Shown here: one piece after another, positions 490-31,050 of the stretch | Layout: each line of letters begins with the position of its first letter | Numbering within the stretch: position 1 is the first letter of the stretch | Assembly (NCBI GenBank): GCA_042569365.1 | Contig: JBHPHK010000004.1 | Location: 6,113 to 70,112, forward strand | Direction: 5' to 3' | Source: Patescibacteria group bacterium | GTDB taxonomy: Bacteria; Patescibacteriota; JAUYIX01; JBHPHK01 | Length of the DNA: 64,000 nt | The notes under the pieces: generated by a model | What the model was told of the DNA's origin: nothing | Seen by the model: only the letters and a program-made list of their open reading frames with translations | Database searches by the model: none | Program-made: the position numbers and the translations under genes

Positions 490-1567
490 GTTGCTTAGCT
501 ATGCTGTCCCAGGAAAAATTATCACTTGCTATTTGAGATCGTCTCTTTAGTTCATCTAGCATTTCCGGTTTATCAATAATCTTCTCGATCGCCTCAGCTA
601 AATCATCAGGCGCATCAGGTTTTACCAGCCAGAGACCATCCAATGTTTTATCAATCATCTTAGCTTCCGTACTTACGACTGGAAGTCCCGCACTGATCAC
701 AGATATCAGCGTACTGCGCCGACTAGTTGCGCCTTCCACAAACGGCAGGACAAATAAATCTACAAGCGCGAGTTCTTCGGCAAGCGTTCGATCACTATAA
801 TCAGCAGGCCATAAAATATCTTCATCCTCAAAATTGTCTTTGAGGAAGTCTTTAATCTTAGCACGATATCGGCCATTGATTAAGTCTTGTTTATCGCTCG
901 TTTCCTGGATCGAATCCAATGCAGACAACAGTGACAACCTATACCGATATCCACGCTCTCTGAGCCTCTGAAGGCTCTCTAGAAGCGTTAATAACCCTTT
1001 ACTAGGCTCCAAGTACCCCCAAAAACCAATCACTATCTCATCAAGCTGCAGGCCTTTCGCCCCTCTTTTTGCCTGAATCTCTTCCTGCGACAATCTCACT
1101 ATCTCAAGATTTGGACCAACCGGGATCGCACTTATCTTTCTTTCCGAAATCAACCAGAGACGAACCATCGCTTCCACAAAACTTTTGTCCGGCACAATAA
1201 TTTGATCAGCCACTACCATCAAAAGCCAAATCTTAAAACGACCCTTCCATGAATACGTCAGGTATTCGTGTACGGTCAATACCATCTTTGCCTTGGTAAA
1301 AAACCTCAACATCCACCACTTGCAAACAAGACCAACCCTCTTACCATAAGCTGAAGTAGGATATTGTAAGTGCACTACATCTATCTTTTCCATCTGAACA
1401 ACTTTTCTTATTTTAGTAAATTGTGATGTGATAATCATGGTCTCGACTCCTTGTGCTCGCAAACTTTCATGCAACCGCTTGGTATATCTTCCCACTCCAC
1501 ACTCGCAGGGAGGGTAAGTCCCCGATACTAAAGCAATCGATTGTTTCTTTAAAGTATTAACCGGCAT
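425..1567 (-). CDS. glycosyltransferase, GT-B fold (GT1/GT4-like)
   Basis: 380-aa ORF. The C-terminal half has a GT4-type nucleotide-sugar pocket pattern (DLFVLPFVEGATSRRSTLISVISAGLPVVST). It overlaps the flippase gene by 11 nt. Confidence 0.8.
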   Translation of the reverse strand: MPVNTLKKQSIALVSGTYPPCECGVGRYTKRLHESLRAQGVETMIITSQFTKIRKVVQMEKIDVVHLQYPTSAYGKRVGLVCKWWMLRFFTKAKMVLTVHEYLTYSWKGRFKIWLLMVVADQIIVPDKSFVEAMVRLWLISERKISAIPVGPNLEIVRLSQEEIQAKRGAKGLQLDEIVIGFWGYLEPSKGLLTLLESLQRLRERGYRYRLSLLSALDSIQETSDKQDLINGRYRAKIKDFLKDNFEDEDILWPADYSDRTLAEELALVDLFVLPFVEGATSRRSTLISVISAGLPVVSTEAKMIDKTLDGLWLVKPDAPDDLAEAIEKIIDKPEMLDELKRRSQIASDNFSWDSIAKQHASLYTKFRQQNKQTDINSVD

Positions 1568-3005
1568 CGGAACTTCTTATGTTTAGCATCCTACGAACGT
1601 CGCCCGGCGTGATCGCCCTCAAGACGAAAAGTAATCCGCCATATACGATGGCCGCGATCACAACAATCACAAATATATTCCAGTCGCGGACAAGCCAAAT
1701 CACTCCGCCCATGACTGCTGTCGCCACGATCACTGGCGCCCATATTTTTAATGGCGGCCAAGTCTTGAAATAGCGCCCCACTAATATAAATGCAACGACC
1801 GCTACCAAAGCCTCTACGCCCACCGTTGTTATCGCAGCTCCTGTATAACTATACAGTGGGATCGCGATAAAGTTGCTGACCAAGCTCAAGACTGCGCCCA
1901 CTCCAAATATCAAAGTCAAAGATTTAATCCTTTCGCCCGCCACAAAAGCTTGGCTAGCAAGATTTCCTACAAACATAAACGGAATCGACAAGATTATGAT
2001 CTGTAAAACAAATGCCGACTCGGCATACTCACCGCCCGCGATCACCTCGATAATTTTTGGTGCAGTCAAGATCACCCCCACCACTACCGGAACAGAAATT
2101 ATAAGTAATAGTTCAAAAGTTTTGCGAAATACTCGGCGGAAACGTTCACGATTACGATTGACGAAGTGGGTCAGCGTCCCCAGCACCAACCCTGTGATGA
2201 TTGCGGGGAATGCCACCAAAATATCCACCACCTTGAACGCCGCTCCATAAATACCAACATCCGCCTCCGGTTTAAACCAGGAAAGAATAATCGTATCAAA
2301 ATGAAAATAAATAATATTCAAAACGATGGCGGCGGCAAGCGGTACCGCAAGCTTCAGGATTCGCTTCCAAATGGTAAAGTCAAAAGCAAAACCAACTTTA
2401 ACATAACGCCGCGCAAATAAGATATTAATCAGCAAAGCTATCAAGTTTCCGGCCACCAAAACCCACATCACACTGAGCAGACCCGCCTGCAGATAAACCA
2501 CCAACACAACTCCTGCCAAAAAGATTATTCTTCCGACTACTTCAGAAAATGCCAGCTTCCAAGCCGTAAATTTATATTGAAAAATGGCGGCATAAAGACT
2601 CGTCTGCTGCAAAAATAAATAAGATAAGATGCCGACCCAGATACCGACCTTGACCACCAAAGGATAAGGAATAAACCAAGCAATCGCACCGCCGATCACA
2701 AAAAATCCTACCGTTAGTGTAAGACGCAGCGCGGTTACATTTCTAAACAGACGACTCTGTTCGATCTTACCGTCGGCAAACTCCCTGATCGTTATCGCGA
2801 ACAATCCAAAATCAGCCAAGATCGCAAAGAATCCTAGATAAGCCATGATCGTCGAATACTGACCAAAGGCATCGCGCCCCAAATAGCGCGTCAAGATCGC
2901 AAATGTTATCAGCCCGACTATCAGTCCCAGAATCTTCCCTACAAACTGATATACAGTATTTGAAGCGACTTTCGACGTTAAAGTTTTCTCTTGTTTATCT
3001 GGCAT
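1557..3005 (-). CDS. polysaccharide flippase (MOP/Wzx family)
   Basis: 482-aa ORF that is almost entirely hydrophobic helices (about 12-14 TM). Length and pattern are typical of Wzx/MurJ-like exporters, and it forms an operon with the GT. Confidence 0.8.
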   Translation of the reverse strand: MPDKQEKTLTSKVASNTVYQFVGKILGLIVGLITFAILTRYLGRDAFGQYSTIMAYLGFFAILADFGLFAITIREFADGKIEQSRLFRNVTALRLTLTVGFFVIGGAIAWFIPYPLVVKVGIWVGILSYLFLQQTSLYAAIFQYKFTAWKLAFSEVVGRIIFLAGVVLVVYLQAGLLSVMWVLVAGNLIALLINILFARRYVKVGFAFDFTIWKRILKLAVPLAAAIVLNIIYFHFDTIILSWFKPEADVGIYGAAFKVVDILVAFPAIITGLVLGTLTHFVNRNRERFRRVFRKTFELLLIISVPVVVGVILTAPKIIEVIAGGEYAESAFVLQIIILSIPFMFVGNLASQAFVAGERIKSLTLIFGVGAVLSLVSNFIAIPLYSYTGAAITTVGVEALVAVVAFILVGRYFKTWPPLKIWAPVIVATAVMGGVIWLVRDWNIFVIVVIAAIVYGGLLFVLRAITPGDVRRMLNIRSSDAG

Positions 3006-9512: not shown

Positions 9513-10661
9513 ATGCGAATCGTAAACCTACAACTAGATAGTTACCGTAACTACGATAAAATCAACCTTACTTTAAATAAGGGGGTTAATATTTTCCGTG
9601 GTTCGAATGCAAGCGGCAAAACGAATCTTTTAGAGGCGATTAGCCTTTTTGTTTTGGGGGGATCGTTCCGAGCACAAGATTTATTTTTAATAAAATATGA
9701 AGAGCCAGCCGCACACGTGTCTCTCAAAATAAAATCTGACCAGGAAAACAAATTAAAGGTAAGTTTGGGAACGACCGACAAGGGCTTAAAGAAAGTTTGG
9801 AAGAAAAATGATATGGGCTCTCAGTTTAGTTATTTGCGCAAGGATCTTCTCGGCGTTCTGTTCTTGCCGACCGACACAGAGTTCGTAACTGGTTCGCCAC
9901 AGATCAGGCGCCAATTTTTCAACCGCGTTTTGTCGCAGATCGATCGCGACTATGCACAAACCCTTTTTCAATATAATAAAACTCTCAGGCAACGAATCTT
10001 TTCTTTGAAAAGAGTGCGTCAAAAATATTCTTTCGAAAATGAGCTTGATACGTGGGACGAAACGCTAGTCAAATATGCCGTGCCTTTGTATCAGGCGCGC
10101 GAAGCACTGGTAAAAAAACTTAATCGTTATTTATCTGAGATTTATAGCGATGTTATTCGGGGAAAGGCGGAGTTGAAGATCGATTATAAGGCATCACCGG
10201 ATGGGATTTTGCTCGAGGATGATCTGGGTCTGCGCCTTTCTGATCAGCTGATCGCTTCGCGCGAACGAGATCTTTCGCGAGTGCGTACGCACAACGGTCC
10301 TCACAGAGACGACTGGCAGTTTATGCTTAATGGAAACCCTCTGAGCGAAACCGGATCGCGCGGAGAGCAGCGCAGTGCAATTATCGCGATGAGGGTTGCC
10401 GAGGCGCGCGTCATTGAAGAAGTATCTAAGCACAGGCCGGTTCTTTTGCTGGATGATGTTCTGTCAGAACTAGATCAGCAGCGCCGCGAGACGTTACTTG
10501 AGATCGTTAAGGAATACCAGACGATTATTACGACTACTGATGTTGATTTTCTAGCCAACCATTTAGACATACTCAGCGATGTTAAGCTGTTTGAGGTTTC
10601 ACAAGGTAAAGTAAAATCAATCAAGCTTGATGATGCAAAAGCTTTATATTTTTCAAACTAA
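9513..10661 (+). CDS. recF: DNA replication/repair protein RecF
   Basis: It has the Walker A motif GSNASGKTNLLEA and the signature/Walker B region (LLLDDVLSELD). It follows the dnaA-dnaN-recF synteny. Confidence 0.9.
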   Translation: MRIVNLQLDSYRNYDKINLTLNKGVNIFRGSNASGKTNLLEAISLFVLGGSFRAQDLFLIKYEEPAAHVSLKIKSDQENKLKVSLGTTDKGLKKVWKKNDMGSQFSYLRKDLLGVLFLPTDTEFVTGSPQIRRQFFNRVLSQIDRDYAQTLFQYNKTLRQRIFSLKRVRQKYSFENELDTWDETLVKYAVPLYQAREALVKKLNRYLSEIYSDVIRGKAELKIDYKASPDGILLEDDLGLRLSDQLIASRERDLSRVRTHNGPHRDDWQFMLNGNPLSETGSRGEQRSAIIAMRVAEARVIEEVSKHRPVLLLDDVLSELDQQRRETLLEIVKEYQTIITTTDVDFLANHLDILSDVKLFEVSQGKVKSIKLDDAKALYFSN

Positions 10662-10958
10662 ATGTCTTGGCATTCCATCCAAAAATTAATTCACACTACT
10701 TCCAAGAAAGAAAAACTTGGGAAAGGTTTGGACGTTATGCTGATCTGCAACTCGGCTGAACGCTCTATCCATAAAAATTGCAGCGAAGCAACTGCACGCA
10801 ACGCGAGCGTTGTGGCTTATACGAATAAAGCTCTGACTGTTTCAGTGAGTGGAGCAGCGTATGCGCAAGATATCAGACTGCACCAAAGAAAAATAATAAA
10901 AGACCTCGATAACGAGATCGAGGTCGGAATTGTCGAGAGGATCTTATATAAGATTTAA
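10662..10958 (+). CDS. DUF721/DciA-like small protein
   Basis: 98 aa, abutting the recF stop. The C-terminal pattern (ALTVSVSGAAYAQDIRLHQRKIIKDLDNEI) resembles DUF721 proteins commonly found after recF. Confidence 0.65.
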   Translation: MSWHSIQKLIHTTSKKEKLGKGLDVMLICNSAERSIHKNCSEATARNASVVAYTNKALTVSVSGAAYAQDIRLHQRKIIKDLDNEIEVGIVERILYKI

Positions 10959-13795
10959 CTCACCGTAACTACAACAGTGTCTGTATGCGAATTCCCCGCA
11001 TAGTCAGTGACGGTCAATATTACGTTATAAATTCCGGCAGAGGTAAAGATGTGTGAAACATTAACGCCAGAGCCTGTTCCTCCATCATCAAAGTTCCATT
11101 CATAACTTGCGATGCCGACATTATCTGTTGAGCCAGATCCGTTGAAGCCTACGGATTGCCCAACTGTTGTGCTCACGTTTGCTCCGCCGTTCGCGACGGG
11201 GTTTTCTGTATCAGGGACAAACGAAATCGTGATCAGGTCTTCAGCGATATTGCCCATGCCGTCGGTAACGCGTACGCGAACCGTGTGACTACCTGCTGTA
11301 AGAGATCCGGTGTATGTAGCCGCGTATGGAGAGTTTGTGTCTGTGGCAAATGAAACATCATCAACAAAGAACTCTACGTTGCCCACGCCTAGCGGCGCAT
11401 TAACACTGGCCGAAACTGTGAAGCTGCCATAAACTGTGGTGCCGTCTCCTGGACCTGTTATCTGGAGCGACAGTGCTGATCCAGCTTGATCAACTGAACA
11501 ATATTCTGTCGGAAGACTGTCAGTATAACCATGCTTGGCACCCCATGCTCTAACCGGCGCCTCCCAGTTGTTATAGAGAGGGTCGTTTTGTGGGTTTTTT
11601 GGAGCAGGTCCATTCGGATTGGTGCGGTCGACATAGTGTAAGATGCTATGTGCCGATTTGAATGTCCTCTCGACAATGTATTGGCTTGGCAAATTGTCTG
11701 GAGCTAGCTTGCTTTGATCAAAAGAACAAACTTTCACAACCTGAGACTTGCCCATCTTACCGGCCAAGGCTGGGTTGCTTGGATTTGTTTTCGTATAACC
11801 GTTAAATTTTTCGACTGGAGTATTAGCCAAGGCATTCTTCATATACTCGTTCCAAATTGGCGTTGCCACAACAAATCCAGGCGAGTTACCACGCATCAAA
11901 GTGTTGTCATTGTTTCCCACCCAGACAACTGCGGCAAGGCTCGGTGTGTATCCAACCGTCCACCCGTCTGTGAAATTTTGAGTCGTACCGGTCTTGGCAG
12001 CGACTGGTCGTCCACTTAGTGTCAATTTGCTGCCGCGTGGAAGTCCAGGTGCGCGTGCACTATCATCTGTCAAAACATTAGTAATCATGCGTGCGATATT
12101 TTCATCGACTACTTGCTCGACGCTGTTTTCAGGATTATGTTCTTCCAGAACTGTTCCGTCAGCTTCCATTACTTTGAGAATGCCAGTCTCTTCAATGCGG
12201 CGACCTTCGTTGGCGAGAGTCGCAAACGCGGATACGTGATCGAGAGGCGTTACGTCATATGCTCCGAGAGCAAACGAAAGACCAACCTCTTCCGCGCTCG
12301 GGAAAGTCGAATAGCCCAAACGATTTGCCAGATCGAGAGTCTCTGGAATTCCGGCCATATACAAAGTCTTAACGGCCGGTGTGTTCATGGAGTTTTGCAG
12401 AGCTTTACGCATGGTTACCGGCCCAGCTTGAGTAAGGCTGTAGTTTTTAGGCTTATAGTTACCGAAGAAAGTAGTGTTCAAGTCGTAGAGAATTGTGTCA
12501 GGCGTGTACCCTCGCTCAAAGGCGGCAGTATACTCCAAAGGCTTAATAGAAGAGCCAGGCTGTTGGAGCGTAGTCGTGATGTTTACGTTTCCATCATTTG
12601 CCGTATCGAAGTAATCAACAGAACCAACCATTGCCAAGATTTCTCCAGTCTTAGGATTAATAGAAGCAAGCGCTGCATTCTTGGCGCCGTGACTTGCATT
12701 AGCGCGCGCGCCGTTTGTCACAGCGGTCTCTGCTATTTTTTGTTTATTTAGATCAAGAGTGGTAATGATTTGCAGTCCACCCTGCTCTAAGCGCTGTTCA
12801 CCGTATCGTTCAGCTAACTGCTCGCGTACATAGAAAACGAAGTGTGGCGCAGTAATATCAATATTCGGTCTTTCGAATTTAGGGAGAGCTCCGACATTTG
12901 CATCATGCTCTTCCTGTGTGATATGACCATGTGCTAAGAGTTTCTCTAGAACGAAATCTTTGCGCACCAAGAGACGATCAGTATGACTACCGTAAGGAGA
13001 ATAGTAGGATGGTGCATTTGGCAAAGAGGCGAGCGTGGCGGCTTCGTTAAGGGTTAGGTCGCCGACTGATTTATTGAAAAATGTTTTGGTCGCAGACTCG
13101 ACGCCATAAGCGTTGCTGCCGTATGGAATTTCGTTTAGATAAAGCTGCAGGATTTCATCTTTTTCTAGGCTGTGCTCGATTTCGATCGCCAAAATGATTT
13201 CTTTTATCTTACGCGTCACCGTTCGATCGGGAGATAAGAGAGAATTTTTAATAAACTGCTGCGTTATCGTAGAGCCACCCTGCTTATTGGCTCCACCACT
13301 ACTGACTGTCTTAAAGACACCGCGGATCAGTCCCATAAAATCAATACCACCGTGTTCGTAGAATTCCTCATCTTCAATAACGATTGTTGCTTCCTTGATG
13401 ATCTCCGGCATTTGATCGATCGGAACCACAGTGCGTTTTTCCTCGCCATAAATCTCATATAAAATATGCTCTCCTGTACGGTCGAAGATTTTTGTCGATT
13501 CTGCGACTAGACGGCTGTTGATTTCGTTTGGATTTGGCAGATCTTTAGCAAACACCACGAACATAATGCCAATCGCGACAACTCCCACAACAAATAGACC
13601 AAGCGCAACATATAAGATGCGTTTGGTTATTTTGATCTTTTGCTCTCTTGTTTTTTTCTTGCGCAACGTGACGAGGCGTCGGTAAGCCTTAGTTTTTCTT
13701 AAGACCTGGTTGGTGCGACCATGAGCTCTTGAAGAAGGCGCGCCGAGAGGTTTTCGGCGGCCAGGCTTAAATTTACGCAAAAATTTCTTAGACAT
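10955..13795 (-). CDS. class A penicillin-binding protein (transglycosylase + transpeptidase) with C-terminal Ig-like/PKD domains
   Basis: It has an N-terminal TM helix, GT51 motifs (EDEEFYEHGGID, GGSTITQQ) and transpeptidase motifs (PGSSIKP, SMN, KTGT). The tail contains the PKD-like repeat WNFDDGGTGSG...YNVILTVTD. Confidence 0.9.
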   Translation of the reverse strand: MSKKFLRKFKPGRRKPLGAPSSRAHGRTNQVLRKTKAYRRLVTLRKKKTREQKIKITKRILYVALGLFVVGVVAIGIMFVVFAKDLPNPNEINSRLVAESTKIFDRTGEHILYEIYGEEKRTVVPIDQMPEIIKEATIVIEDEEFYEHGGIDFMGLIRGVFKTVSSGGANKQGGSTITQQFIKNSLLSPDRTVTRKIKEIILAIEIEHSLEKDEILQLYLNEIPYGSNAYGVESATKTFFNKSVGDLTLNEAATLASLPNAPSYYSPYGSHTDRLLVRKDFVLEKLLAHGHITQEEHDANVGALPKFERPNIDITAPHFVFYVREQLAERYGEQRLEQGGLQIITTLDLNKQKIAETAVTNGARANASHGAKNAALASINPKTGEILAMVGSVDYFDTANDGNVNITTTLQQPGSSIKPLEYTAAFERGYTPDTILYDLNTTFFGNYKPKNYSLTQAGPVTMRKALQNSMNTPAVKTLYMAGIPETLDLANRLGYSTFPSAEEVGLSFALGAYDVTPLDHVSAFATLANEGRRIEETGILKVMEADGTVLEEHNPENSVEQVVDENIARMITNVLTDDSARAPGLPRGSKLTLSGRPVAAKTGTTQNFTDGWTVGYTPSLAAVVWVGNNDNTLMRGNSPGFVVATPIWNEYMKNALANTPVEKFNGYTKTNPSNPALAGKMGKSQVVKVCSFDQSKLAPDNLPSQYIVERTFKSAHSILHYVDRTNPNGPAPKNPQNDPLYNNWEAPVRAWGAKHGYTDSLPTEYCSVDQAGSALSLQITGPGDGTTVYGSFTVSASVNAPLGVGNVEFFVDDVSFATDTNSPYAATYTGSLTAGSHTVRVRVTDGMGNIAEDLITISFVPDTENPVANGGANVSTTVGQSVGFNGSGSTDNVGIASYEWNFDDGGTGSGVNVSHIFTSAGIYNVILTVTDYAGNSHTDTVVVTVS

Positions 13796-26341: not shown

Positions 26342-27955
26342 TTATTCAGTTGAACCTTCGCGCTTCTCGCGCCGTCTCAGTCCGACGTAGCTGATCGCCG
26401 CAGTCAACGCAAGGCTTATTAAAATTGAGAACAGTAGAGTTGTAGATCCGGCCTGGAGAAGCGAATCTCCAATACCTCCGCCAGTCTCTGTAGAAATATC
26501 TGCATTGCTACGGGGGAGAATACGATAACCGCTGCTGGTTTGGCTGACGACGCCGGTGATCATAAAGAAGTCGCCTTTTTGTTTGTCGGGCAAGTCGATT
26601 TCCGTGTCCGGATCAACATATATCTTCACAGCTCCTGTGTCATCGTCGAGGTAAAAAGTAGAACCGCTCGTTTCCGTAATATTTCCTTGGACGCGCACTA
26701 ATTTGCCCTCGTAATCTTCATCTGTATCTCCAGTTTTAATATCTGTGGGCGTGATGGGCAGATTTGAGCTTAAAAATTCAATGTCAGATAGGTCAGAAAT
26801 TTTTAGCCGTGTTTCACCTTGGGTGGAGCTTAAAGTTCCTTTGATTTTCAACTTATCGCCTAATGAAAAGTCACTGACAGACAAAGTGCCGACATAAATT
26901 TGCATTCCGCCTGTAGAATCTTCGACGTAAAAATATTTCTCACTTAAAACTCCGGGCTTGACCGTAACAATTGCTTCAACTAAGGCTTCTGCATCAGGAT
27001 CTAGCGTGCGTGCTTCTGCAATGGTCAAGACTTCGTCTGTTGGATCGGGATCAACGGGATCAGTTGGGTCTACAGGATCAATCGGATCGTCTGTAACTAC
27101 GACAGTAGCAACTTCAGAATTTTCAGACTGAGCTCCGTGGGAATCAGTTAATGTTATGCTGACGGTATATTCTCCAGGTGTATCATAAATATATTCTCCG
27201 GACATCTCTGTACTCACTCCTCCATCGCCGAAATTCCAAGCAGCCGTGAAAGAATCGTTTTCTGGATCGGTTGAGATCGCGGCATTATAGGTAGCCGTAA
27301 GAGGCGCTTCGCCTTCATCTGGCGTAATTATCGCTGTGATCTGCGGTGCATCGTTATTATCAATACCAGGACTGGAGCCAAAGGCGTTGGCGCTCTGTGA
27401 CCAATTCATAGGCTCGTTAGTGAGTTCGGGAGAGTTCTTCTCCCAGGAAATTCCTTCGCCTGCGTCACCGGACCAGTCAAAGACGTCAATAATATTTCCA
27501 GTGAAGTCTGTGAGTGTTAAAGTGTCGCCGCTGTTTCCGAGTCCGTTGCCAATACTGGTATCGGCGTAGACTTTGATCATAATAGTTGTGGCGGGATCTG
27601 CATTGGCGGTCAGAAAATCGTTATATTCTCCGGCATACTCCGGGTCAACGATAATAGCACGCGCACCCGGCTCCAAAACTGTCCCTGCTTTGCCCCAGTC
27701 ATAGAGGGTCGTATAGTCTTCGAAAACATCGTTATTATCGGCCGGGTCACCCAGCATCCAGCGCCAGAGATCGATCTCAGAGTCGCCAAGATTGATAAGT
27801 TCGACAAATTCGCCCGTGTCTTCATCGAGCGGGTTGGCCATAACTTCTGTGATACGGATTTGTGATAATACTTCAGCTCGGACAGGACTGATATTAACTG
27901 CAAAACTCGTAAATACAAACGTTAAAATAGAAAAGAGGGCAATAGATTTTTTCAT
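26342..27955 (-). CDS. surface protein: signal peptide + lamin-tail domain + PKD + two OB-like domains + C-terminal TM anchor
   Basis: My preferred start is ATG 27955 (MKKSIALFSILTFVFTSFAVNISPVRA). It has the LTD motif RITEVMANPLDEDTGEFVELINLG and a PKD motif (WNFGDGG). The C-terminus is LLFSILISLALTAAISYVGLRRREKRE. The 91 upstream codons of the track ORF run through a terminator and a mini-ORF. Confidence 0.75.
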   Translation of the reverse strand: MKKSIALFSILTFVFTSFAVNISPVRAEVLSQIRITEVMANPLDEDTGEFVELINLGDSEIDLWRWMLGDPADNNDVFEDYTTLYDWGKAGTVLEPGARAIIVDPEYAGEYNDFLTANADPATTIMIKVYADTSIGNGLGNSGDTLTLTDFTGNIIDVFDWSGDAGEGISWEKNSPELTNEPMNWSQSANAFGSSPGIDNNDAPQITAIITPDEGEAPLTATYNAAISTDPENDSFTAAWNFGDGGVSTEMSGEYIYDTPGEYTVSITLTDSHGAQSENSEVATVVVTDDPIDPVDPTDPVDPDPTDEVLTIAEARTLDPDAEALVEAIVTVKPGVLSEKYFYVEDSTGGMQIYVGTLSVSDFSLGDKLKIKGTLSSTQGETRLKISDLSDIEFLSSNLPITPTDIKTGDTDEDYEGKLVRVQGNITETSGSTFYLDDDTGAVKIYVDPDTEIDLPDKQKGDFFMITGVVSQTSSGYRILPRSNADISTETGGGIGDSLLQAGSTTLLFSILISLALTAAISYVGLRRREKREGSTE

Positions 27956-28395: not shown

Positions 28396-28524
28396 AATAG
28401 TTCTCCTTGTAATGGTTTATTTTAAGGCTTAATAAGCCTGTTATTTGTAAGCTGCAATCCATTTATATTATAACCTCTGAAAATAGCAAAAACAAGCAAG
28501 GCGTATTATTTAGGTTTCACAATG

Positions 28525-28669
28525 AAAAAGCGCCCTCCCGGAGTGGTCACAAGGGGAGGGCGCGAAGTGATCTAATCCGGGAAAATTCCCGGAAAAGTGG
28601 GGGCATTACCATGTATGTGGCATTCGAGGGTGCCGCATACTTAGGTTAACGATCTCGAGGCAATCGTTA
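28525..28669 (-). ncRNA. candidate small RNA (~145 nt) or leader, class unknown
   Basis: A promoter lies directly upstream. Four hairpins can be drawn: AACGAT..ATCGTT, GTATGCGGCA..TGCCACATAC, CCGGGA..TCCCGG and GCGCCCTCCC..GGGAGGGCGC+TTTTT. The loops and linkers are C-rich (CCUCGA, CCCUCGA, GCCCCCA). No sensible ORF is present. Confidence 0.5.
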
Positions 28670-28675
28670 CTCAAT

Positions 28676-28704
28676 ATACTAGGTGCAATAGAAGTTTTTG
28701 TCAA
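28676..28704 (-). promoter_or_regulatory. sigma70-type promoter (TTGACA-17-TAGTAT)
   Basis: The minus strand has an exact -35 at 28699..28704 and a -10 at 28676..28681. Confidence 0.5.
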
Positions 28705-28711
28705 GAGTTTT

Positions 28712-28754
28712 AAGGTAAAAGAAATAGAGCGCTCCCTAGAAGGAAGCGCTCTAT
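28712..28754 (-). terminator. rho-independent terminator after the 47-aa/14-aa mini-ORF unit
   Basis: The minus strand reads ATAGAGCGCTTCC-TTCT-AGGGAGCGCTCTAT followed by TTCTTTT. Confidence 0.6.
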
Positions 28755-29072: not shown

Positions 29073-29170
29073 AGGCAAGTACCTCTTTTTTGTCTGCGCC
29101 GTATAAATACGGCTCTGGTAATGTTCGAGTTTCGGGAATAACACGACCCGGGGTAAGGAGTGTTTAAGTA

Positions 29171-29199
29171 AATATACTTTTCCCAGCGCGTTTTGTCAA
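29171..29199 (-). promoter_or_regulatory. sigma70-type promoter (TTGACA-17-TATATT)
   Basis: The minus strand has exact hexamers and lies about 90 nt upstream of the 47-aa ORF. Confidence 0.55.
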
Positions 29200-29211
29200 T
29201 TGTGTATAAAG

Positions 29212-29243
29212 AAAAAAGCGCCGCTGATTAAGGCGACGCTTTT
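29212..29243 (-). terminator. rho-independent terminator after the 4-TM protein gene
   Basis: The minus strand reads AAAGCGTCGCC-TTAATCA-GCGGCGCT followed by TTTTTT. Confidence 0.6.
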
Positions 29244-29269
29244 ATGGTTTGATTTTTGAAGTTGGCTGG

Positions 29270-29844: not shown

Positions 29845-31050
29845 CTAAGCCTTCTTCTTCCTCAAATCAAAACTAATATTCTTGCTTGCTTCTACCTGAG
29901 GCTGATCAAAAGGATTAACTCCGCGCATCCAGCCAGAGTACACCGCAGCATACTGCAGGAAGCCCATCAGTTCGCCGACATTCTCTTCATCCAGCTTTGT
30001 TATCGAAGTCGTGATGACTGGAATCCCGATATTGATCGCATCCTCATAAGTACCACGGTATTCATACTCCATAACCTTCGAGAGAGGAATGTCATCCAAA
30101 TCCGCGAGCGTCCCATCACGCAGAGGAATGTCACCGATCTCTTCCGGAATATATGTTGCGTGATCATGGAAAAAAGTCTCCGGACGAATAAACCAACCGA
30201 CCACGTTCTTGCCTCCACCAAAGAAACGCTGGTTGGTGTGGTGCTGAGACTGCGGGCCTTCGGCGCCGTACATAGTTTGGCCGCCGCCCTCTTTACTGAC
30301 GGATTCATGGAAAAGCTGGACGATCAATTCTGAAATACCGGCTAGTTCATGTGAATAGATTGGGAAAAATATTTCACTGAAACCTTTTTTCTCCAACTGA
30401 TAGAAAGCGGCTGCCACTTGTAGGGCAGGATTTTTTTCCAGCGGAACGGAAGGCGCGCACTTAGCATGCATGCTCTTAAAACCGGCATGGAGTTTGTCGA
30501 TATCAATCTCGAGCAAAGCAGTTGGGAGGAGGGCAGCCTCTGTGCCACCGATAAAACGACCGCCAATGTCCGGGTGCATGAAAGTCTTCCATTTGAGGCG
30601 ATCGGCTATTTCTCGCAGAGCTCCGTTGGGACCTGTGATCGCCGCAATCTTATATTTATGTCGTGAAAAGAATAGTGTGTTTTCGAGTTGTTCGACGTTG
30701 GTACCGGATTTGCTGATCGTTACCACGACAGAATTATCTGCCGGAGCAAAGCGCATCAGGTGTTCCAGATAGTTTGGATCAGACGTGTTGCAGATGAAAA
30801 CTTTGTGTTTGGATTGATGCCAGCCCAGGGCCTCGTAGATCGCCTTGTAGCTGGTGATCGAGCCACCGCGGCCGACGACAATAATGTTGCGGGCATTGCA
30901 ACAGGTCTTCACAGATTCCTTGATTCCTTCCAAGTCCGCTTCGTATTGTGCGAAAGCGGGAACTTTTTGTTTGGCAATAGAGGCGAGCTCTTTTTTAAGC
31001 CCTGCGCCGATGTCTTTGATAGTTGTGTGTTGTAGGTCGTTTTTAAGCAT
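29845..31050 (-). CDS. pgi: glucose-6-phosphate isomerase (short SIS-type PGI)
   Basis: 401 aa with PGI-type motifs (IVVGRGGSITSYKAI, VVTISKSGTNVEQ, GGRFIGGTEAALLP, NPFDQPQVEASK). Confidence 0.8.
   Translation of the reverse strand: MLKNDLQHTTIKDIGAGLKKELASIAKQKVPAFAQYEADLEGIKESVKTCCNARNIIVVGRGGSITSYKAIYEALGWHQSKHKVFICNTSDPNYLEHLMRFAPADNSVVVTISKSGTNVEQLENTLFFSRHKYKIAAITGPNGALREIADRLKWKTFMHPDIGGRFIGGTEAALLPTALLEIDIDKLHAGFKSMHAKCAPSVPLEKNPALQVAAAFYQLEKKGFSEIFFPIYSHELAGISELIVQLFHESVSKEGGGQTMYGAEGPQSQHHTNQRFFGGGKNVVGWFIRPETFFHDHATYIPEEIGDIPLRDGTLADLDDIPLSKVMEYEYRGTYEDAINIGIPVITTSITKLDEENVGELMGFLQYAAVYSGWMRGVNPFDQPQVEASKNISFDLRKKKA

Follow-up and report, generated by a model that had tools for sequence, protein, structure and literature searches.

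Does a short interval set among genes for very small peptides, in the genome of an uncultured Patescibacteria bacterium, encode a stand-alone small RNA (sRNA), or do its inverted repeats serve the neighbouring genes in some other way? The interval lies in a 64-kb stretch of DNA, referred to here as the window, in which an earlier note had described a promoter followed by four hairpins and a terminator, with C-rich loops that might pair with the ribosome-binding sites of nearby mini-ORFs in the manner of RsaE/RoxS, or that might alternatively belong to a cis-acting leader or riboswitch. All of the features described there are present at the coordinates given in the note and lie on the minus strand. 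The reading preferred here, to which a probability of roughly one half is assigned, is that the locus is a candidate stand-alone sRNA gene representing a new family. Transcription would start from a sigma-70-type promoter (P2), run through approximately 146 nt folding into four hairpins and stop at a strong intrinsic terminator (T2), the unit being bracketed by T1, the terminator of the upstream unit, and by P3, the promoter of the downstream unit (Table 1). We infer that the RNA would be released as a discrete species and act in trans.

Table 1. Features of the locus in the window and in the homologous contig L002
Feature	Position	Strand	Basis or detail
T1, terminator of upstream small-ORF unit	28724..28754	-	terminator scan, both genomes
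P2 -35 hexamer, TTGACA	28699..28704	-	consensus scan; identical in L002 at 11363
P2 -10 hexamer, TAGTAT	28676..28681	-	consensus scan; identical in both genomes
Predicted sRNA transcript, ~146 nt	28525..28671	-	fold z = -6.58
Hairpin 1, UAACGAUU / loop GCCUCGA / GAUCGUUA	28647..28669	-	predicted fold
Hairpin 2, GUAUGCGGCA / loop CCCUCGAA / UGCCACAUAC	28613..28640	-	predicted fold
Linker 2, AUGGUAAUGCCCCCACUUU, 19 nt with CCCCC	28594..28612	-	predicted unpaired (unpaired probabilities)
Hairpin 3, UCCGGGA / AUUU / UCCCGGA	28576..28593	-	predicted fold
Linker 3, UUAGAUCACUUC, unpaired, conserved	28564..28575	-	11/12 identical in L002
Terminator T2, 10-bp GC-rich stem, 14-nt loop	28530-28563; U5 at 28525-28529	-	
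P3 promoter, TTGTTT-17-TATAAT	28467..28495	-	read from sequence, between T2 and mini-ORFs
Peptide family, three copies in the window	29072-28929, 28395-28288, 28221-28150	-	
Peptide family, L002	10773-10898, 10980-11123, 11653-11835; second island 1500-2400		
Promoter-like sites, L002			P1 TCGACA-17-TATAAT; P2 TTGACA-17-TAGTAT; P3 TTGCCC-17-TATAAT

The limits of the proposed unit are set by elements that recur in a second genome. The TTGACA-17-TAGTAT promoter, read at 28704-28676 on the minus strand, is found as originally described, and its 17-nt spacing is the same in the single close relative that was found, Logan contig L002, although the spacer sequence differs. In 5.5 kb, the consensus scan returned nine promoter-like matches against 6.9 expected, and a P2-like match by itself is near chance expectation. 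The start of the RNA was taken to lie 5-6 nt downstream of the -10 hexamer and its end was placed in the U-tract. Upstream, T1 ends approximately 20 nt before P2 and marks the 5' boundary of the unit. Downstream, the ATG of the first mini-ORF lies approximately 130 nt beyond T2, on the same strand as the RNA, with P3 in between. The window copy of P3 was missed by the consensus scan because its -35 hexamer matches at only three of six positions; the aligned site in L002 (TTGCCC-17-TATAAT, 11549-11577) was picked up. Stand-alone sRNA genes usually show this very order of terminator, promoter, RNA, terminator and promoter. The RNA contains no conserved internal ORF, the ATGs at 28636 and 28612 being without an SD and absent from L002.

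The predicted fold agrees with that which had been proposed by eye. The window RNA forms exactly four hairpins, the MFE structure being also the centroid (-59.2 kcal/mol), and its stability exceeds that of dinucleotide shuffles (average -35.2; z = -6.58), none of the 200 shuffles being as good. T2, composed of GCGCCCUCCC, a 14-nt loop and GGGAGGGCGC followed by UUUUU, is likewise present as claimed and accounts for -22.4 kcal/mol when folded alone; the consensus terminator scan misses it only because that scan allows loops of no more than 8 nt. The C-rich motifs are also where they had been reported, with GCCUCGA in the loop of hairpin 1, CCCUCGAA in the loop of hairpin 2 and UGCCCCCAC in the linker, as is the terminator-arm motif CCCUCCCC. 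The opposite (plus) strand folds about equally well (z = -5.4), a point that would also suit DNA sites rather than an RNA, and the strand assignment therefore rests on the promoter, on the orientation of the U-tract, which occurs on the minus strand only, and on the G-U pairs of the proposed strand.

Most of what can be said about selection on this RNA comes from L002, whose PGI and LTD-PKD-OB proteins are 83% and 74% identical to those of the window. Positions 10568-12081 of the contig are syntenic with 29270-27955 of the window and carry the promoter, RNA and terminator at the corresponding place, and the three promoter-like sites of L002 all lie at homologous positions on the same strand. 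The L002 RNA (11396-11545) also folds into four hairpins ending in a terminator (-56.9 kcal/mol, z = -4.92). At four-fold degenerate sites the two genomes are only 44% (PGI), 37% (QueA) and 36% (LTD) identical, so that neutral sites are nearly saturated. Over the stretch that begins with hairpin 3 and ends in the U-tract, 53 of 56 positions are identical when the terminator loop is excluded, and this comparison shows the 3' half of the RNA to be, by the measure of its sequence, under strong purifying selection. The invariant elements of this half comprise hairpin 3, the UUAGAUCACUU linker and, together with its loop motif UUGUGACCAC, the terminator. Hairpin 3 is identical at 17 of 18 positions, the single change from C-G to U-G keeping the pair; the stem of T2 differs only in its closing pair (G-C to G-U), and its loop has acquired a 7-nt insertion in L002 with the conserved UUGUGACCAC kept.

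In the 5' half, stems are retained in part and loops are not. Hairpin 1 of L002 shows one-sided changes (U-A to U-G and U-G to C-G) that keep pairing, gains two extra pairs, loses the basal U-A pair and has CCCA as its loop. In hairpin 2, the upper six pairs are kept, with a compensatory change from G-C to A-U and the repair of a mismatch; of the four lower pairs only one survives, and the loop reads UUUGCCC. Linker 2 is not conserved and reads AUAACUCUAC in L002. Altogether, the stems carry five pair-preserving changes (four one-sided and one compensatory) and one repaired mismatch, set against four lost pairs, of which the lower stem of hairpin 2 accounts for three and the base of hairpin 1 for one. 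RNAalifold found no covariation in the MAFFT alignment of the two sequences, because the pairs of the 3' half are invariant. The changes between the two sequences, which permit no statistical covariation test, are consistent with an RNA structure under selection, and those that preserve pairing through G-U favour selection on a minus-strand RNA over selection on DNA sites. Support from covariation is nevertheless minimal, amounting to one apparent compensatory pair in two sequences, and has been counted against the sRNA reading. In general terms, two of the features expected of an sRNA gene are present: the unit has its own promoter and an intrinsic terminator, both conserved in the one relative, and between window and L002 it is conserved above neutral expectation, with its structure kept through substitutions.

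How widely is this unit distributed? In the more distant syntenic relatives L004 and L005, which share the order RuvB...QueA-PGI...LTD, the whole island is absent and unrelated genes occupy its place. Two scans of JGI metagenome contigs for exact patterns, one built on the RNA linker and one on a back-translation of a neighbouring 14-aa peptide, gave no matches, and a genome-contig scan with PGI gave only one unrelated match of 28%. In protein searches with PGI and LTD, the next best matches after L002 were 47% and 38% identical, respectively. A phage BLAST for homologues returned nothing, and a single match in a viral-sequence scan fell inside a coding region and was put down to chance. No paralogues were found when a covariance model of the 3' half was run over 142 kb of sequence. 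The absence from L004, L005 and the JGI scans counts against the sRNA reading, wide conservation being unproven. Sampling of this lineage is very sparse. As a credible, lineage-restricted candidate, the sRNA gene has to date been recognised in two genomes, both from a single Patescibacteria lineage.

The PGI gene of the window (29845-31050, minus strand) encodes a protein 100% identical to an NCBI entry from a Patescibacteria MAG (locus tag ACFL1U_01380). It is of the classical PF00342 type, and its nearest homologues outside its own genus are 46-47% identical, several of them named as DPANN archaea; at the same position, the syntenic relatives encode a PGI of the PF10432 bact-PGI_C type (L004 6393-7406; L005 7154-8149). 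This pattern suggests that PGI was replaced in place by a non-orthologous gene through horizontal transfer. On the other side of the island, 26342-27955 (minus strand) encodes a secreted protein of LTD-PKD-OB-fold type that weakly resembles the ExeM/NucH extracellular nuclease, and the start region of this gene is AU-rich and without an SD. A 28-nt AT-rich motif, AAAATAGTTTAATTGTTTTTTTAGATTT, occurs at 28038-28011 and at 35373-35346 (minus strand) with 93% identity between the copies; the copy upstream of the LTD-PKD-OB gene is conserved in L002 and the other directly follows the stop codon of a 637-aa gene. This motif is possibly a shared promoter or operator.

With respect to known families, Rfam 15 gave no match on either strand of 28525-28704, at gathering thresholds or at E <= 10, in agreement with the earlier statement that no known riboswitch consensus could be recognised. 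The 6S, SRP and tmRNA families can be set aside, given the lack of an Rfam match and a fold of four separate hairpins that does not suit them, as can a CRISPR/tracrRNA-type context, the window having no repeat arrays. A sub-threshold RsaE match (RF01820, 27.2 bits where the threshold is 79; E = 0.05 for a search of 1.4 kb) at 29163-29245 on the plus strand is noise, since it is driven by the terminator of a 145-aa membrane-protein gene on the other strand. In the literature searched, no paper describing regulatory RNAs in Patescibacteria/CPR was found.

The likeness to RsaE/RoxS, from which the idea of an anti-SD function had been drawn, lies in a short stand-alone RNA with its own promoter and intrinsic terminator, and in several hairpins with G-poor unpaired segments that carry C-runs. 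Other C-rich sRNAs of this kind in Firmicutes are LhrC and the streptococcal csRNAs. In the window RNA, unpaired positions are indeed G-poor (6 of 63, and 6 of 68 in L002) but not enriched in C, which makes up 33% of them and 32% of the whole RNA. C-runs occur in the loops and linkers of both homologues, although neither their sequence nor their position is conserved between the two. The differences go further than this. There is no homology, the RsaE/RoxS covariance model staying below its gathering score of 79 bits and giving no match at this locus even at E <= 10, and the host belongs to Patescibacteria whereas RsaE/RoxS belong to Bacillota. In RsaE, conservation falls on the duplicated C-rich motifs; in the present RNA, it is lowest in the C-rich loops, those loops and linkers with CCUCGA, CCCUCGA and CCCCC being the most diverged parts of the two homologues, and the invariant part is a non-C-rich linker together with hairpin 3 and the terminator. 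The C-rich motifs of RsaE/RoxS pair with G-rich or SD regions of mRNAs (PMC6158497), whereas no SD pairing above background was predicted for the window RNA among local targets. The likeness therefore remains one of design, and membership of the RsaE/RoxS family fails.

Target prediction employed an accessibility-corrected duplex calculation similar in spirit to IntaRNA, plain duplex folding having produced meaningless long-range pairings. Against the four local start regions of AGGAG type, belonging to ORFs of 47, 14, 35 and 23 aa, pairing energies ranged from -1.3 to -3.8 kcal/mol. The earlier note had held that its claim would fail if pairing with local SD regions proved no better than in shuffled controls, and of 60 dinucleotide-shuffled versions of the RNA, 55 equalled or bettered its best-of-four score. 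The proposal that the C-rich loops are anti-SD parts aimed at the local mini-ORFs is thus unsupported: those loops are the least conserved, and predicted pairing with the local start regions does not surpass that of shuffles. Extending the calculation to 60 start regions in the window gave best accessibility-corrected scores of -6 to -10 kcal/mol, which is the background level, and scans of the whole transcripts of the P1 and P3 units in both genomes found no conserved pairing. Complements to the conserved linker occur in the window at chance level only; one of 8 nt (AUCUAAUC), at -16 to -9 of the LTD start, was discarded as within chance expectation. As far as thermodynamic prediction can tell, the targets of the sRNA would not be the four neighbouring mini-ORF start sites. 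The space searched was the 64-kb window, and the lack of a convincing predicted target within it was counted against the sRNA reading.

That lack lends some weight to a different view of the same transcript, in which the RNA would bind a protein, as a scaffold, sponge or decoy, and would not be a base-pairing regulator. Hairpin 3, the linker and T2 would then form the putative binding site, and the 5' hairpins would be structural. Pairing sRNAs typically show a single short seed, unlike the present RNA, the most conserved parts of which (53/56) include both stems and loops. Known sponges, however, contain a repeated motif, which is missing here as is any second copy; no candidate partner protein has been linked to the locus, and the argument is wholly one from negative evidence in a 64-kb target space. 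We regard this reading as unlikely, if the least so of the alternatives. That hairpin 3, a palindrome, and T2 are invariant at the level of sequence would suit roles in binding DNA or protein as well, and was weighed against the sRNA reading. Under that reading, hairpin 3, the UUAGAUCACUU linker and the terminator with UUGUGACCAC in its loop form an invariant 3' module that would confer stability and provide the conserved recognition surface, whether a seed or a protein-binding site. The loops and linkers of the 5' half, which evolve fast and are G-poor and C/U-rich, could base-pair with G-rich stretches of mRNA much as C-rich sRNAs do in Firmicutes.

The second alternative raised in the earlier note, that of a cis-acting leader or riboswitch, is disfavoured: a conserved P3 precedes the mini-ORFs, nothing competes with T2 and there is no Rfam match. 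As a leader or attenuator, the RNA would be made by transcripts from P2 that mostly stop at T2, and read-through dependent on a ligand or a protein would drive the mini-ORFs of 35 and 23 aa. It shares with known attenuating leaders and riboswitches a structured 5' RNA closed by an intrinsic terminator, upstream of small genes on the same strand; 130 nt separate that terminator from the first ATG. Hairpin 3, the linker and T2 with its loop are moreover conserved in sequence beyond the needs of a plain terminator, as would suit the binding site of an antitermination protein, and in both genomes the nascent transcript is predicted to pair UCAC of the linker with GUGA of the T2 loop in a 4-bp helix. 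This helix sequesters neither arm of the terminator; as an H-type pseudoknot it would have 4 bp only and a 3-nt connector across a 10-bp stem, and was rejected as sterically doubtful. No antiterminator was found. When pairing of the 3' arm of T2 is forbidden, the 5' arm finds no partner in the window RNA, and a weak helix takes up three of its bases in L002. The fold then weakens to -37.3 kcal/mol in the window (from -59.2) and to -37.7 kcal/mol in L002 (from -56.9), a cost of about 19-22 kcal/mol. Riboswitches and attenuators, unlike this locus, have a mutually exclusive antiterminator, belong to a recognisable aptamer family and are followed by no intervening promoter; here the fold offers no such alternative, Rfam 15 no aptamer match, and a putative promoter, with a perfect TATAAT -10 hexamer and a TTGNNN -35 hexamer at 17 nt, stands between T2 and the ORF in both genomes. 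The stretch from T2 to P3 is furthermore unalignable between the two. Since no Rfam family matches, no antiterminator forms and a conserved P3 intervenes, an independent small RNA is favoured over a leader or riboswitch, and the latter is judged quite unlikely, more so than a protein-binding RNA, with some probability left to read-through that depends on a protein.

The least probable reading denies the RNA any function, taking the palindromes CCGGGAATTTTCCCGG and the inverted repeat of T2 for DNA operators or insulating terminators inside the small-ORF array and the P2 match for the leftover of a decayed cassette; it draws on the organisation of the locus as an array of promoter, small-ORF and terminator cassettes of one peptide family, and on a resemblance by eye between the hairpin 2 arm AUGCGGCAC and the cassette start AUGCGACAC, but the cassette similarity lies within the shuffle distribution in all 12 local alignment comparisons, and a decayed promoter would not keep both hexamers and their spacing at such divergence. 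An origin of the 5' half from the start of a small-ORF cassette (AUGCGRCAC, GUUAACCU) was rejected likewise, its alignment scores being within the shuffle distribution.

The candidate sRNA gene sits within an array of very small genes of a single family, each with a strong SD of AAGGAG type. The family is multi-copy, and its members are Gly/Cys-rich peptides of 23-65 aa with the motifs MR[HNY][LF]G at the N-terminus, KDCVTD and E[NT]TGIL.GAS.GGG, and every unit carries a promoter, an SD and a terminator of its own. The family matches no Pfam or NCBIfam model, and a profile search of a collection of 5.8 billion proteins found no homologue. At the 3' end of the upstream unit, approximately 48 nt before T1, a 14-aa ORF, M[T/L]VSDLQRYESGFV, follows a perfect AGGAGG (window 28846-28802, minus strand; L002 11217-11261, plus strand). 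Its two versions differ by six synonymous changes and one non-synonymous change within highly conserved flanks, and it has the look of a micropeptide that is in fact translated. Conservation extends to the 5' UTR of the P1 unit (29165-29075, minus strand). It contains CACUCCUUACC, which resembles the 3' end of 16S rRNA (anti-SD), a block, UCGAACAUUA, that recurs in the UTRs of other L002 cassettes, and a hairpin with compensatory changes (GCCGUAUUUAUACGGC versus GCCGCAUCUCGCGGC); this UTR may be an autoinhibitory leader.

The setting invites a more specific version of the sRNA reading, in which the RNA would be a dedicated regulator or RNA cofactor of the surrounding peptide family, its fast-evolving 5' loops keeping pace with the fast-evolving cassettes and its invariant 3' module binding a conserved partner. 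We consider this improbable, ranking it between the leader and the DNA sites; if true, the Candidate Phyla Radiation would gain its first described sRNA-peptide cassette regulatory module. On present evidence, the locus belongs to an ordinary class, that of orphan sRNA genes, and has a narrow known distribution. As a candidate it is cleanly delimited, its 3' module exceeds neutral sites by far in conservation, and it could be tested directly in metatranscriptomes or with heterologous reporters. It also points to a compact array of peptide genes, very small and strongly SD-driven, that standard annotation largely misses.
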